Sequence record: SRR22947725_4722
Direction: 5' to 3' (one strand)
Length of the DNA stretch: 36,771 nucleotides
The position numbers were made by a program, and so were the translations under genes. Under the pieces are notes generated by a model. That model saw only the letters and a program-made list of their open reading frames with translations. It had not been told where the DNA came from and did not search any database. Of the stretch, positions 30,623-35,588 are shown piece by piece (position 1 is the stretch's first letter; each line of letters opens with the position of its first letter).

Positions 30623-30628
30623 AGCCTA
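30623..30628 (-). promoter_or_regulatory. -10 box TAGGCT for leaderless uvrB, overlapping the coaE stop codon
   Basis: TAG(stop)GCT, then 7 nt, then ATG. Confidence 0.65.
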
Positions 30629-31276
30629 GAGCGCCACGCTGGGGAACCGCGGAGGAACGCTGGACAATCGAGCGGGCCAGGCGCTGCGCAAAGCCTGGTA
30701 GAGCTCTGCAGCAGCGTGCTGGGTCTGCTCGAGGGACTGGGACGAGTCGAGCACAACATTTGCCAGAGCAAGGCGTTCTTCATCGGTCGCCTGAGCGGCA
30801 ACGATGGCTTCGGCCTGCACCTGAGTCAACCCGCGCGCTTCACGCAGACGCGCCGTGCGGGTTGCTGCAGGGGCATCGACAACGACGATCAAATCAAACT
30901 CTCCAGGGTCTCTCGCTTCGGCCAGCAGAGGGACGTCATAAACCAACACCGTGTCAGGGTGCTCCGCACTGGCTTGGGTAATAGCCCTTCCAGATAGGCG
31001 CCTAACTTCGGGGTGAAGAATCGAATTAAGGGTGGCTCTGGCGTTGTCGTCGCTAAAGACGAGAGCGCCCAGAGCGGTGCGGTCGAGTTCCCCGGATGGC
31101 AGGATGACTCCGGTTCCAAACGCTTCAGTAATAGCGTGGAGCCCGGCTGAACCTGCAGCCACCGCGTTCCTGGCGAACACGTCTGCATCTAAGACAATGG
31201 CTCCCTGTTCGCGGAGGATTGCCGAAACCGTCGACTTCCCGGCTGCTACCCCTCCGGTGAGTGCAATCACGCCCAT
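30626..31276 (-). CDS. coaE: Dephospho-CoA kinase
   Basis: [41 protein letters not shown]; -10 TAGAGT (31283-31288) 6 nt upstream of the ATG. Confidence 0.94.
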
Positions 31277-31301
31277 ACCTCAACTCTAACGAGGCTTAAC
31301 C

Positions 31302-31336
31302 TCGTGTGGCCCCGCCCAAAGGACGGGGCCACACGA
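31302..31336 (-). terminator. Strong hairpin after rpsA (terminator-like)
   Basis: Perfect 13-bp inverted repeat TCGTGTGGCCCCG (31302-31314) / CGGGGCCACACGA (31324-31336), 6 nt after the rpsA stop; no U-tract. Confidence 0.75.
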
Positions 31337-31342
31337 AAGGTT

Positions 31343-32821
31343 CTATTCTGCGGAACCGACGAGCTTGTCCCGCAAAGCGGACAAAGCTTCGTCGTCAGCG
31401 AGTGTGCCCGCTTGTTCCTCTGGTGCCTGCGACACAGAACCGGCATCGGCATCGGCATCATCATCCGTGGCTTCCACGGGGACGATAACCATGGCCGCCA
31501 TGTGTGCAACCTGAATCTTGTGCGACTCCCAGCGAGCCTGGGCATCGGCGTATTGGCCTTCCCATACCTTGCGTTGGTCATCAAAGCCCTCGGACCATTC
31601 GCCCGTGTCGATATTGAAGCCTTCGGGGTATGCGTAGTTGCCCTTGGCGTCGTATTCGGTCGGCATTCCATAGAGTGCTGGGTCGAATTCTTTGCCTTCG
31701 GGGTCAACACCCTCATTGGCCTGCTTAATAGACAGCGAGATCCGTCGGCGTTCGAGGTCGATGTCGATGATCTTGACAAACACCTGGTCTCCGGTGGAAA
31801 CAACTTGCTCGGCCAGTTCGATGTGCTTGTCCGAAAGCTCGGAGATATGGACCAAGCCTTCGATGCCATCGGCGACACGAACAAACGCGCCGAAAGGAAC
31901 AAGCTTTGTGACAGCACCCGGAGCGATCTGACCAATGGCGTGAGTCCTCGCGAATACCTGCCAGGGGTCTTCCTGGGTCGCCTTCAGGGAAAGCGAAACG
32001 CGCTCGCGTTCCATATCGACTTCGAGAACTTCCACGGTCACTTCCTGGCCCACTTCGACAACCTCGCTGGCATGCTCGATGTGCTTCCAGCTCAGTTCCG
32101 AAACGTGGACGAGACCATCTACGCCACCCAGGTCCACGAAGGCACCGAAGTTAACGATCGAGGAGACAACACCCTTGCGTACTTGTCCCTTGACAAGGCC
32201 CTCGAGGAAGCTTGAGCGGTTCTGGCTCTGGCTTTCCTCCAGGAGGGCGCGACGGGACAGCACCACGTTGTTGCGATTCTTGTCGAGCTCGAGAATTTTC
32301 GCTTCCACTTCCTGACCCAGGTACGGGGTCAGGTCACGAACGCGACGCAATTCGATGAGCGACGCGGGGAGGAAGCCGCGTAGTCCGATATCGACAATCA
32401 GACCACCCTTCACAACCTCGATCACGGTACCGGTGACGACACCATCGGTTTCCTTGATCTTTTCCACATCGCCCCAGGCGCGCTCGTACTGGGCACGCTT
32501 CTTGGAAAGAATCAGCCGGCCTTCTTTGTCTTCTTTCTGAAGAACGAGGGCTTCGATAGCGTCTCCCACAGACACGACCTCTGAAGGGTCAATGTCGTGC
32601 TTGATAGAGAGTTCGCGAGAGGGGATAACACCCTCGGTTTTGTATCCCACGTCGAGGAGAACCTCGTCGCGGTCGATCTTGACGACGGTACCTTCAATGA
32701 GGTCTCCATCGTTGAAGAACTTGAGTGTTTTCTCAACCTCGGCCAAGAAGTCTTCGGCACTGCCGATGTCGTTGATAGCGATTTGCTGGGGGCCAGAAGT
32801 TGTTGCAGATGTCTGAGAGAT
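31343..32821 (-). CDS. rpsA: 30S ribosomal protein S1 (4 S1 domains), probable non-canonical ATC start
   Basis: S1 repeats are clear. The frame stays open upstream of the track's TTG (32746) through ISQTSATTSGPQQIAINDIGSAEDFL up to an in-frame TAG at 32837-32839. The exact start is inferred. Confidence 0.95.
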   Translation of the reverse strand: MSQTSATTSGPQQIAINDIGSAEDFLAEVEKTLKFFNDGDLIEGTVVKIDRDEVLLDVGYKTEGVIPSRELSIKHDIDPSEVVSVGDAIEALVLQKEDKEGRLILSKKRAQYERAWGDVEKIKETDGVVTGTVIEVVKGGLIVDIGLRGFLPASLIELRRVRDLTPYLGQEVEAKILELDKNRNNVVLSRRALLEESQSQNRSSFLEGLVKGQVRKGVVSSIVNFGAFVDLGGVDGLVHVSELSWKHIEHASEVVEVGQEVTVEVLEVDMERERVSLSLKATQEDPWQVFARTHAIGQIAPGAVTKLVPFGAFVRVADGIEGLVHISELSDKHIELAEQVVSTGDQVFVKIIDIDLERRRISLSIKQANEGVDPEGKEFDPALYGMPTEYDAKGNYAYPEGFNIDTGEWSEGFDDQRKVWEGQYADAQARWESHKIQVAHMAAMVIVPVEATDDDADADAGSVSQAPEEQAGTLADDEALSALRDKLVGSAE

Positions 32822-32912
32822 AGTGGTTGGGCGTTTCTACTAGGGCCACCACACGGGTGTCTGGCGGCACGTGGACAGGACAAAAAGCCCCTGAGGGCAA
32901 GTATTCAGTCTA
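32822..32912 (-). promoter_or_regulatory. rpsA promoter (-10 TAGACT, 32907-32912) and structured, SD-less 5' leader
   Basis: Hairpin GCCC-UCAG-GGGC plus U5 (32882-32898) and stem GCCGCCA/UGGUGGC (32845-32868); no GGAG before the ATC. Confidence 0.55.
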
Positions 32913-32939
32913 ACCCTGGCGGAAGCAGTAACACAAACT

Positions 32940-35588
32940 CTAGTGAGCGGCTTCGTCCCATTGCGAACCCCAACCCACCTGAACGTCCAGCGGCACCGCT
33001 AACGTCGCGGCACCACCCATTTCCTCAACCACAATGAGCTCGAGGGCTTCGCGCTCGCCCGCGAGAACGTCAAAAACTAGCTCGTCGTGGACCTGCAGAA
33101 CCATGGTCGAACCTAAGCCCTGGGAGGCAATCCTCAACTCAATGCCGATCATTGCCCGCTTGATAATGTCGGCTGCTGTTCCCTGGATAGGTGCATTCAA
33201 TGCTGCCCGCTCTGCCCCTTCCCTCACCATACGGTTCGGGGAAGCTAGCTCGGGAAACGGACGGCGGCGGCCGAAAATCGTTTCGGTGTAACCATCCTTT
33301 TGTGCCTGTTCCACGACGCTGCGCAAGTAGTCGCGTACTTTCCCAAATCGGCGGAAGTACTCCGTCATGAGCTCTTTGGCTTCTCCCGTCGGAATCGAGA
33401 GCTGTTTGGCAAGGCCAAAAGCGGAGAGCCCATAGGCCAATCCGTAACTCATCGCCTTCACCTTGGTCCGCATCTCTGCGCTCACCGCGTCTGGCTTCAC
33501 TGCGAAAATGCGAGCCCCCACGAAGCGGTGGAGGTCCTCGCCCGCGTGGAAGGCCTCAATCAGGCCCTCATCGCCGGAGAGGTGGGCCATGATGCGCATT
33601 TCGATCTGCGAATAATCTGCCGTCAGCAGGCCTTCCGCGGGCGGCTTGGCGACAAAGGTCGCCCGAATCTTGTGGCCCATCTCTGTACGGATCGGGATGT
33701 TCTGCAAATTGGGATCGGAAGAGGACAGCCGGCCGGTGCTGGTGCCCGTTTGGTCGAAAGTAGTGTGTAGCCGACCATCAGCAGCGACGGAGCTCTTCAG
33801 GCCCTCGACAATTTGCCGCAGCTTGGTTGCGTCCCGGTGTCGCAGTAACGAGTCAAGGAAAGGGTGGGGATTGGTGAGCTGCAACTCGCCGAGGGCTTGA
33901 GCGTCGGTGGTGTATCCGGTCTTTGTAGCCCGGGTTTTGGGCATGTTCAACTCGTCAAACAACACGGTTTGCAGTTGTTTAGGTGACCCCAGGTTCACAA
34001 CGTGTCCTAGTGCGGCGAAAGCTGCGGCTTCATGGGCGGACACATCTGTAGCGAGAGATTTTTCCAACTCCTCCAATTCCGCTTTGTCGCTGCCGATCCC
34101 CCGCCGCTCCATTCCTGCGAGCACGGAAACCAGCGGCAATTCCATCGATTCCAGAATCCCTCGAGACCCGGCATCAAGGGACGCCTCTAGTTGCGTCCAC
34201 AACCCCAGTGCACACCACGCCTCCCCTCCCACACCGGCGGCATTGTCTTCCGGTAGCAGTTGGTCGGCTCGAGGGGTGGGGAGTTCGACTCCCACGAATT
34301 CTTGCACCAGTTCTGCAAAGCCCCTGGTTTTGCCGGCGGGTTTCTGCAGCCAGGCCGCCAGATGCCCGTCCCCCGAAGGGGAGACTGCTGCCACCCCAAC
34401 ATCCGCAAGAGCGCCCAGTTGTGGTTTGGCGTGAAAATAGACCCACCGGTGGTCATGACGGGTCAGAGCGTCGGCGAGAGGGAGATGATCTTGGCCACCC
34501 CGAATCCAGGGAACCCGAAGGGCGGAATCGCCGTGGGCCAGTCCAATCTCGGAAACGACTCCCCCGCTGTGGCGGACGGTGACACCGATGGCTTCCCCCT
34601 CACGGGAGGACAGCCACTTGGTGAGCTCCTGGTCCACGGTGGTCTGATCTAAGGGTAGAGACACCGTTGCCGGCGAATGCGCTGGAGCCTCGGGGATGTT
34701 ATCGGCGCCCGCCAGTGTCAAAACCCGGTCTTTAAGGGTTCTAAACGCGAGCTTGGTGAAGACCTCGGTCACCGCGGACGCGTCGATCTCGCCGCGGACC
34801 AAATCAGAGAGCTGGACCCCCAAATCAACATCGGTCAGGAGGTGGTTGAGCTGCCGGTTCAAAACCGCTCGCTCTCTTTGCTCCCGAAGGTTGTTTCCGA
34901 CGACACCGGGAATGTCCTCGGCCGCCGCTAAAACGGCGTCCAAAGACCCGTACTGGGTGATCCATTTCACCGCGGTCTTCTCGCCCACCTTGTCGATCCC
35001 GATGAGATTGTCACTGGTTTCACCGACCAGGGCGGCAATTTCAGGGTATTGGTGGGGCTTCACGCCGTAGCGCTCCACCACGGCGGCGGGGGTGTATCGC
35101 TTGAGCTCGGCCACACCACGAGAACTGGGATACAGGACCGTAACCTGGTCGTTGACCAGCTGGAAGGTGTCCCGATCCCCCGAGACCACAAGAACCTCGA
35201 ACCCTGCGTTCGCGCCGGTTGTGGCAAGGGTTGCGAGGATGTCGTCTGCTTCATAGTCTTCCTTCGTCAACGTGACAACACCCATGGCGTGGAGCGCTTC
35301 TTCCAGGAGCGGTACCTGTCCGATGAACTCGGCGGGGGTTTCTCCCCGAGTGCCCTTGTATTCGGGATAGATCCGTGTTCGGAAGGAAAACCTGGAGAGA
35401 TCGAAAGCAACCGCAAGGTGGGTGGGGTTCTCTTTTTTCAGGAGCCCCAACAGCATCGAAATGAACCCGTGAATGGCATTGGTGTGCTGGCCGGCAGGAG
35501 TCACAAAACTATCCACGGGGAGCGCGTAAAAAGCCCGGAAAGCAAGGGAGTGCCCGTCGATAACCATCAAGGTAGGCTTGTCGCTCAC
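32940..35588 (-). CDS. polA: DNA polymerase I
   Basis: IDGHSLAFRAFYAL, YEADD, TGRLSSSDPNLQNIP, ADYSQIEMR, NAPIQGTAADI, LQVHDELV; -10 TAGGCT (35595-35600) 6 nt before the GTG. Confidence 0.98.
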   Translation of the reverse strand: MSDKPTLMVIDGHSLAFRAFYALPVDSFVTPAGQHTNAIHGFISMLLGLLKKENPTHLAVAFDLSRFSFRTRIYPEYKGTRGETPAEFIGQVPLLEEALHAMGVVTLTKEDYEADDILATLATTGANAGFEVLVVSGDRDTFQLVNDQVTVLYPSSRGVAELKRYTPAAVVERYGVKPHQYPEIAALVGETSDNLIGIDKVGEKTAVKWITQYGSLDAVLAAAEDIPGVVGNNLREQRERAVLNRQLNHLLTDVDLGVQLSDLVRGEIDASAVTEVFTKLAFRTLKDRVLTLAGADNIPEAPAHSPATVSLPLDQTTVDQELTKWLSSREGEAIGVTVRHSGGVVSEIGLAHGDSALRVPWIRGGQDHLPLADALTRHDHRWVYFHAKPQLGALADVGVAAVSPSGDGHLAAWLQKPAGKTRGFAELVQEFVGVELPTPRADQLLPEDNAAGVGGEAWCALGLWTQLEASLDAGSRGILESMELPLVSVLAGMERRGIGSDKAELEELEKSLATDVSAHEAAAFAALGHVVNLGSPKQLQTVLFDELNMPKTRATKTGYTTDAQALGELQLTNPHPFLDSLLRHRDATKLRQIVEGLKSSVAADGRLHTTFDQTGTSTGRLSSSDPNLQNIPIRTEMGHKIRATFVAKPPAEGLLTADYSQIEMRIMAHLSGDEGLIEAFHAGEDLHRFVGARIFAVKPDAVSAEMRTKVKAMSYGLAYGLSAFGLAKQLSIPTGEAKELMTEYFRRFGKVRDYLRSVVEQAQKDGYTETIFGRRRPFPELASPNRMVREGAERAALNAPIQGTAADIIKRAMIGIELRIASQGLGSTMVLQVHDELVFDVLAGEREALELIVVEEMGGAATLAVPLDVQVGWGSQWDEAAH

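Follow-up and report, generated by a model that had tools for sequence, protein, structure and literature searches.

Near-Cognate Start Codons and the rpsA Gene

To our knowledge, near-cognate start codons, i.e., those one base off ATG, are found nearly always in genes that are of low abundance or feedback-controlled and possess a good Shine–Dalgarno (SD) sequence. Here, we describe rpsA, the gene of ribosomal protein bS1 (S1), on the minus strand of a 36,771-nt stretch of DNA from the sequence record SRR22947725_4722 (this whole stretch is referred to below as the window). In the species carrying this allele, an uncultured salt-lake and marine actinobacterium of the small-genome Microbacteriaceae, the ancestral ATG of rpsA has been replaced by CAG, and translation probably begins at an ATC two codons upstream. 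It is a natural, population-wide case of a core ribosomal protein gene remaining strongly constrained in its evolution despite the loss of its ATG.

One of the closest described systems is the rpsA leader of Escherichia coli, which Boni and colleagues reportedly described in 2001 as SD-less, structured, and involved in S1 autoregulation. The leader in the window resembles it in lacking a functional SD and in the order of its parts, with upstream hairpins followed by an unpaired initiation region. It differs from it in showing no similarity at the level of sequence or Rfam; moreover, E. coli rpsA possesses an AUG start.

Another known system is infC, which is, like rpsA, a gene of the translation apparatus with a near-cognate start of the AUH type. 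The infC codon is, however, conserved across bacteria and accompanied by a good SD, whereas the rpsA ATC would serve as a start in one species only, lacks an SD, and would have come into use via the loss of a neighboring ATG. As stated in PMC5499595, the AUH starts are discriminated against by the initiation factor IF3. In Deinococcus, dnaA naturally starts at ATC and rpsL at CTG, as Baudet et al. (2010, PMC2830850) demonstrated by N-terminomics. The precedent of Deinococcus dnaA was already invoked by an earlier interpretation of the window made from its letters alone (below, the sequence-only reading), and that paper agrees with it. These genes are likewise essential and conserved, one of them is ribosomal, and the N-terminus of the dnaA product begins with Ser after Met removal, as predicted for the S1 considered here. 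Still, peptide evidence proves the Deinococcus starts, which are shared throughout the genus or phylum, whereas a start at the rpsA ATC is predicted and limited to a single species.

The efficiency of such codons has been assessed in E. coli reporters. According to Hecht et al. (bioRxiv 10.1101/063800), AUC initiated translation at 1–2% of AUG, with an N-terminal Met detected by mass spectrometry, and the four near-cognates in another reporter reached 0.02–3% of AUG; an older report of 5% for AUC is cited in PMC5499595. The reporters of Hecht et al. are similar to the present case in that AUC initiates with Met, but they are artificial constructs with a strong SD. With AUC at just 0.02–3% of AUG there, an abundant protein would not be expected to start at AUC in nature. 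In the literature searched, supplements lying outside the search, no report of a non-canonical rpsA start was found.

Reading Frame of rpsA and Its Ancestral Start

The identity of the gene follows from homology: the N-terminal 110 aa of the product match bS1 from a mycobacterial ribosome structure (8wi7_b, E 3e-62), to which HMMER aligns residues 9–110, extra weaker stretches of the other S1 domains of 8wi7_b also match (tandem S1 domains), and proteins related to this S1 carry the precomputed PF00575. An S1 match was present in 41/41 genomes searched. On the minus strand, the frame begins after two stops and reads TAG TAG AAA CGC CCA ACC ACT ATC TCT CAG ACA TCT GCA ACA ACT TCT GGC CCC CAG, continuing as CAA ATC GCT ATC AAC GAC ATC GGC AGT GCC GAA GAC TTC TTG. 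From the stops (32842–32840 and 32839–32837) to the TTG at 32746–32744, it contains neither ATG, GTG, and TTG, as the sequence-only reading had already remarked, nor CTG. Accordingly annotated with ATG, GTG, and TTG as the permitted starts, the longest rpsA open reading frame (ORF) comprises 467 aa and begins at the TTG; with the start codons of NCBI table 11, it comprises 492 aa and begins at the ATC 32821–32819, reproducing the length proposed earlier. The gene in this latter form occupies 31343–32821 (minus strand; 492 codons, stop at 31345–31343). Neither the 492-aa nor the 467-aa form has an exact entry in a collection of 15 billion proteins.

For comparison, the 5′ ends of rpsA were extracted from every genome of the genus having the region, i.e., 20 species (loci L002–L021) and 13 more (L045–L057), along with that of the nearest genome examined, G001 (locus L001), having 39% of sampled 31-mers in common with the window. 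An ATG start was present in all 33 other species of the genus from which the region was recovered; four genomes of the genus (completeness 53–83%) gave no match for it. The ATG of the relatives aligns not with the ATC of the window but two codons downstream, where the window reads CAG (32815–32813); e.g., one relative, G024, has ATC TCT ATG ACA TCT against ATC TCT CAG ACA TCT in the window. Columns 101–103 of the alignment of these regions (A1), which belong to its ungapped part, contain ATG in 32/32 non-window rows and CAG in the window; the alignment omits G009, a part of whose leader is N, and G001, which is identical to the window there. Beyond the genus set, with which few of them overlap, 80/80 further genome_contigs loci, mostly named Microbacteriaceae (75 found by a regular expression and five read by eye), have an ATG 11–18 codons before the NDIG motif. 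At the protein level, Met occupies the CAG column in 6/6 related proteins examined, taken from the best 120 of 7,997 scored with query residues 1–120, and no CAG-type entry was found among these six.

The ATC itself is not peculiar to the window. The codon at the −2 position is also ATC in G009, G024, G003, G044, G045, G051, and G048, as well as in a Rhodoluna metagenome-assembled genome (MAG), where it belongs to the 5′ untranslated region (UTR). Judging by the alignment, the ancestral start is the codon at 32815–32813, which turned from ATG into CAG by two adjacent substitutions. The ATC at 32821–32819 is, by the same comparison, an older UTR sequence and neither a damaged ATG nor the orthologue of the start of the relatives, since their ATG aligns two codons downstream, at the CAG of the window. 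Hence, the sequence-only reading, which took this ATC to be the start, stands insofar as the codon is the best candidate and the first near-cognate after the stops, but not insofar as it was equated with the ATG of other species. The check it proposed, whether ATC, ATT, or CTG is conserved at this codon in close relatives, came out negative: a non-canonical start is confined to one species, while 33/33 species of the genus and 80/80 further loci use ATG.

The N-Terminal Segment and the TTG Codon

The only canonical start-type codon in the frame is the TTG at 32746–32744 (Leu26 when numbered from the ATC), and a start at this codon would yield a 467-residue S1 without its N-terminal segment. 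In many relatives, however, the position of the TTG is taken by CTG or CTC, so it is a Leu codon, and the 14 codons before it encode a motif conserved in all relatives. Within QIAINDIGSAEDF, the changes between relatives are almost only synonymous, and none of the relatives examined lacks the N-terminal motif that a start at the TTG would remove, Q-[IV]-A-[IV]-N being conserved in all of them. There is also no SD ahead of the TTG.

The same start would remove Phe25 (numbered from the ATC), which aligns with Phe5 of E. coli bS1 in the HMMER alignment. As reported by Byrgazov et al. (PMC4288201), Phe5 and Phe9 in the N-terminal segment of E. coli bS1 stack on Phe32 of protein S2, and the ability to bind S2 and the ribosome is lost in both the F5A and the F9A mutant. 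By analogy, initiation at Leu26 would deprive the protein of the counterpart of its ribosome anchor, if this role of Phe5 may be transferred to the present organism. Conservation among relatives assigns the residues ahead of the TTG to the S1 protein. The TTG is unsuitable as a start, and initiation there is considered very unlikely. Both claims of the sequence-only reading on this point, that the region upstream of the TTG is part of the protein and that a TTG start would delete the conserved motif, are thereby upheld. A practical consequence is that gene calling limited to ATG, GTG, and TTG yields a 467-residue protein without its ribosome anchor.

Reality of the CAG Allele and Selection on rpsA

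A missing start codon readily raises the suspicion of a sequencing or assembly error, or else of a pseudogene, and the sequence-only reading named a single G>C assembly error as the main alternative. The actual lesion is, however, of another kind: two adjacent bases are changed, not one, and at another codon (ATG>CAG). The nearest genome shares ATC TCT CAG with the window, even though the two loci are 96.2% identical over 4.47 kb, with 162 mismatches and two gap openings. Of 14 metagenome contigs retrieved by a pattern scan, five (L032, L035, L038, L042, and L044) are window-type and have ATC TCT CAG, and nine come from other species and have ATG in all nine cases. The window-type sequences represent separate strains, since they differ among themselves in the polA–rpsA spacer. 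Altogether, ATC TCT CAG is found in 7/7 DNA sequences of the species (the window, L001, and the five metagenome contigs), which fall into two haplotype groups ~2.8% apart (1,618 aligned bases: rpsA and 139 upstream bases).

Sequencing runs were consulted as well. All sampled words of 32500–33000 are contained in 14 DNA runs, which may include the source and are therefore not counted as independent, and 48–75% of them in six metatranscriptome runs. At 32813–32821, the Logan contigs assembled from one DNA run and from three RNA runs nowhere depart from the window; all of them thus keep ATC at 32819–32821, as the sequence-only reading had it. One of the RNA runs (X19) carries the G001-like haplotype: its contig, spanning 32400–32921, has nine other letters across the start region. 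Assembly error as the source of the missing ATG was rejected on the agreement of seven independent DNA sequences and three RNA assemblies. A high level of RNA editing to AUG was also rejected, as the contigs of three RNA runs read CAG, bearing in mind that contigs drop rare variants.

The gene has not decayed. A comparison of the seven sequences with CAG (five complete, two partial) reveals 39 synonymous and four nonsynonymous polymorphisms in rpsA. Both haplotype groups share the CAG, so these polymorphisms postdate the loss of the ATG, and their ratio therefore indicates that purifying selection on S1 has continued after it: rpsA has remained functional and under strong purifying selection since the ATG was lost. 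A decaying pseudogene is rejected on the 39:4 ratio together with the intact frame, and no second full-length S1 match was found in G001, which contains a single one. An error or a pseudogene, for which nothing speaks beyond the general prior, thus retains next to no likelihood. The only indel within rpsA of the species is a 6-nt one, in frame, in the acidic C-terminal tail; located at 31454–31460 beside a substitution, it separates the window from the other sequences of the species reaching that far.

The distribution of polymorphism along the locus is uneven. The 186 bases at 32715–32900, comprising the leader and the first 36 codons, are invariant among the seven sequences; at the same time, substitutions occur at 43 sites in the remaining ~1,370 nt of coding sequence, and six sites are polymorphic in the 23 nt that immediately precede the leader (32901–32923). 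Because 32715–32900 harbors no polymorphism, the coding constraint acting before the TTG after the loss cannot be read directly from within-species variation.

The Candidate Start at ATC 32821–32819

With the ancestral ATG gone and the TTG unsuitable, the main candidates are the near-cognate codons and the ancestral site itself. The in-frame codons one base off ATG between the stops and the conserved core are the ATC at 32821–32819, the first after the stops and 6 nt upstream of the ancestral start, and the codons for Ile14, Ile16, and Ile19. We favor the former as the site where translation begins, with a rough probability of 0.55. According to the proposed scenario, the ATG of rpsA was converted into CAG via two adjacent base substitutions while the gene stayed essential, and an AUC already present in the 5′UTR of the ancestor would have taken over 6 nt upstream. 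The ribosome would be placed by the context of the leader, not by SD pairing, and would take the nearest codon capable of pairing with the initiator tRNA; the initiator fMet-tRNA would read AUC with a mismatch at the third position. The expected product is a 492-residue S1 with the mature N-terminus SQTSATTSGPQQIAINDIG... after Met removal, and such a start would give the N-terminal peptide SQTSATTSGPQQIAINDIGSAEDFLAEVEK, with or without Met. The discrimination of IF3 against an AUC start would be a by-product of this event.

Several points weigh against this assignment. The identity of the initiating codon is inferred from sequence, as are its efficiency and the role of IF3. The AUC codon performs poorly in the E. 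coli reporters (0.02–3% of AUG), yet S1 should match the amounts of ribosomes. No GGAG-like sequence is present within 12 nt upstream of the ATC, unlike in infC. The ATC is conserved as a start in no other species, and within its own species it lies in the invariant stretch 32715–32900 and so gives no conservation signal of its own. Three further in-frame ATC codons (Ile14, Ile16, and Ile19) precede the conserved DIGSAEDF core, and codons outside the near-cognate set also initiate at a low level in E. coli (bioRxiv 10.1101/063800).

The downstream ATC codons (Ile14 at 32782–32780, Ile16 at 32776–32774, and Ile19 at 32767–32765) are near-cognate as well and differ from the ATC at 32821–32819 in nothing but where they stand with respect to the ancestral start. 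Initiation at one of them would make S1 13–18 residues shorter while keeping the DIGSAEDFL anchor segment, and would be recognizable by (M)AINDIGSAEDFLAEVEK-type N-terminal peptides. The Thr/Ser-rich tail preceding them varies among relatives and so may be dispensable. On the other hand, these codons are located 33–48 nt downstream of the ancestral position of the ribosome, and initiation at them would cut Q-[IV]-A-[IV]-N, the element conserved in all relatives; a start of this kind is rather unlikely.

Alternatively, the leader may still place the ribosome at the ancestral site, with initiation at CAG itself or at a neighboring ACT, ACC, or ACA. The leader and its spacing to this site are unchanged in comparison with the relatives. 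As described by Hecht et al., the 57 codons that are neither canonical nor near-cognate formed a group initiating at 0.1–1% of AUG in the first E. coli reporter, and CAU and GGA starts gave protein with an N-terminal Met (bioRxiv 10.1101/063800). At the same time, CAG has two mismatches to the initiator anticodon, codons of this sort were several-fold weaker than AUC in the same source, and an AUC is available just 6 nt away, making initiation at the ancestral site unlikely. An unusual initiator tRNA was also sought: nothing odd was found among the 26 tRNA genes of the nearest genome, a MAG with an incomplete set, which includes one Met-CAT, one Ile-GAT, one Gln-CTG, and one Gln-TTG.

Architecture of the rpsA Leader

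The start region is preceded by a leader whose architecture is seen in the window (32822–32912, minus strand) and in loci L001–L021 and L045–L057. Across the genus, the polA stop is followed by a TA[CG]ACT box, a G+C-rich hairpin with a T run, TGTCC[AG], and a second hairpin; then come CC[CT][GTA]AGTAGAAA (in the subclade of the window), ~18 unpaired nucleotides, and the ATG. In the window, the box reads TAGACT (32907–32912), a hexamer resembling a −10 element and present as TA[CG]ACT in most species; its conservation suggests a promoter −10 role. Hairpin 1 (32882–32898; GCCC, loop TCAG, GGGC) and the T run after it may terminate polA transcription or else form a stem-loop at the 5′ end of the rpsA mRNA. 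It is followed by the conserved TGTCCAC motif (32871–32877; TGTCC[AG] across the genus) and by hairpin 2 (32845–32868; GCCGCCA, 10-nt loop, TGGTGGC), predicted in both minimum free energy and centroid folds. The second of the two stops (TAG TAG, 32837–32842) is a part of the conserved GTAGAAA motif (32840–32834), and from this motif on, past the start, the sequence contains little G and is unpaired in the predicted fold.

A G+C-rich hairpin at the place of hairpin 1 was obtained in 29/29 folds with the segment whole (the window, G025, G045, and G051 were read by eye). When folded singly, all 33 species form hairpin 2 at an equivalent position, its sequence varying and its pairing kept. RNAalifold applied to the MAFFT alignment of the leaders returned no useful consensus structure, failing to recover the hairpins, which are of varying length and out of register. 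In Rfam, no matches were found for 31000–33300 at E up to 1, and neither an E. coli-type promoter scan nor a strict terminator scan of 32650–33050 found anything, so the support for the −10-like box and the terminator-like hairpin comes from conservation.

The leader belongs to the SD-less structured type, having no SD and carrying its hairpins upstream of an unpaired initiation region. As there is no SD near the start either here or in the closest relatives, it is the leader rather than SD pairing that probably positions the 30S subunit. The leader may constitute an S1 autoregulatory or mRNA-stabilizing element. Autorepression by S1 is known in E. coli; by analogy, its relief would be a natural buffer for the supply of S1 from a weak start. 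The RNA contigs of two metatranscriptome studies (X15 and X16) end at 32864–32865, within the 5′ arm of hairpin 2, which hints weakly at a processed or alternative 5′ end of the RNA; the contig of the third run (X19) continues past this point to 32921.

Two further ways of starting S1 involve the sequence of hairpin 2. In the first of them, ribosomes translate a tiny upstream ORF, GTG TGG TGG CCC TAG TAG (32854–32837), and restart nearby at the ATC. Such a mini-ORF does exist in this species, ending 15 nt before the ATC, and G025 has GTT at the position of its GTG. Its GTG is, however, devoid of an SD and situated at the loop–stem junction of hairpin 2; the mini-ORF is absent from the relatives, which translate rpsA without it; and the idea, conceived from inspection of the sequence, requires the ATC anyway. 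Reinitiation is accordingly judged quite improbable. The mini-ORF is in frame with S1 and lies within hairpin 2, where G045 and G051 (loci L051 and L052) have an out-of-frame ATG GAG CCA GCC TAA; the mini-ORFs in hairpin 2 probably arose by chance.

In the second, a canonical start in another frame, e.g., at GTG GTG around 32853–32848, would be followed by a frameshift into the S1 frame. An open alternative frame containing GTG GTG does cross the region. Still, the conserved codons of the N-terminal motif are those of the S1 frame, no frameshift signal is evident, and the relatives align without gaps and have no need of a frameshift, leaving this mechanism extremely improbable.

IF3 and the Significance of an AUC Start

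The favored start at ATC 32821–32819 would not be foreign to this organism. In three genomes of the genus (G015, G025, and G001; loci L058, L059, and L060), infC displays AAGGAG or AAAGGAG, 6 nt, and then ATC AGC GAT CC, whereas the canonical in-frame codons upstream of this ATC occupy a different position in each of the three. Hence, infC of the genus appears to start at ATC, so that the organism seemingly already uses AUC as a start. Since IF3 rejects AUH starts and infC itself appears to begin with one, a putative link of S1 to IF3 is mechanistically coherent: a shortage of IF3 would be expected to increase the synthesis of S1 from AUC.

The rpsA case is of the same kind as the near-cognate starts already described (infC, Deinococcus dnaA, and rpsL), the notable point being that it concerns a core ribosomal protein and has no SD. 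In rpsA, no canonical in-frame start precedes the conserved N-terminus, and the near-cognate codon lies two codons upstream of the start of the homologues. What distinguishes infC, namely conservation of the codon across species and an SD at a working distance, is lacking in rpsA. Its putative ATC start is confined to one species, the codon pre-existed, and no compensating SD has appeared, which argues that the loss was an accident, tolerated and fixed, and not the evolution of a regulatory device like that of infC.

A more far-reaching view is that S1 has long been translated without a canonical start or an SD, that AUC is efficient here, that start-codon identity counts for much less in this SD-less, S1-dependent leader than one would conclude from the reporters, and that IF3 fidelity affects the supply of S1, AUC being then the start of rpsA as well as of infC. 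The two clades with the loss are separated by 39 synonymous changes in rpsA. Taken as a whole, this view is doubtful. Independently of it, the locus represents a natural test case for the weight of start-codon identity in SD-less, leader-driven initiation, where an AUC start is expected to be IF3-sensitive. From the evolutionary viewpoint, it suggests that a pre-existing UTR codon can take over once the original start has been destroyed.

Neighboring Genes and Related Proteins

The upstream neighbor, polA (32940–35588, minus strand, from the ORF list), is located just upstream of rpsA both in the window and across the genus. Downstream, the ORF list contains an ORF at 30626–31276 (minus strand), which we take to be coaE-like on the grounds of its Walker-type N-terminus and the gene order. 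Among the proteins related to this S1, three (P0002, P0040, and P0100) are far longer, 675–735 aa, and one of them also possesses a CoaE domain (PF01121); their length may reflect either merged gene calls or genuine gene fusion.

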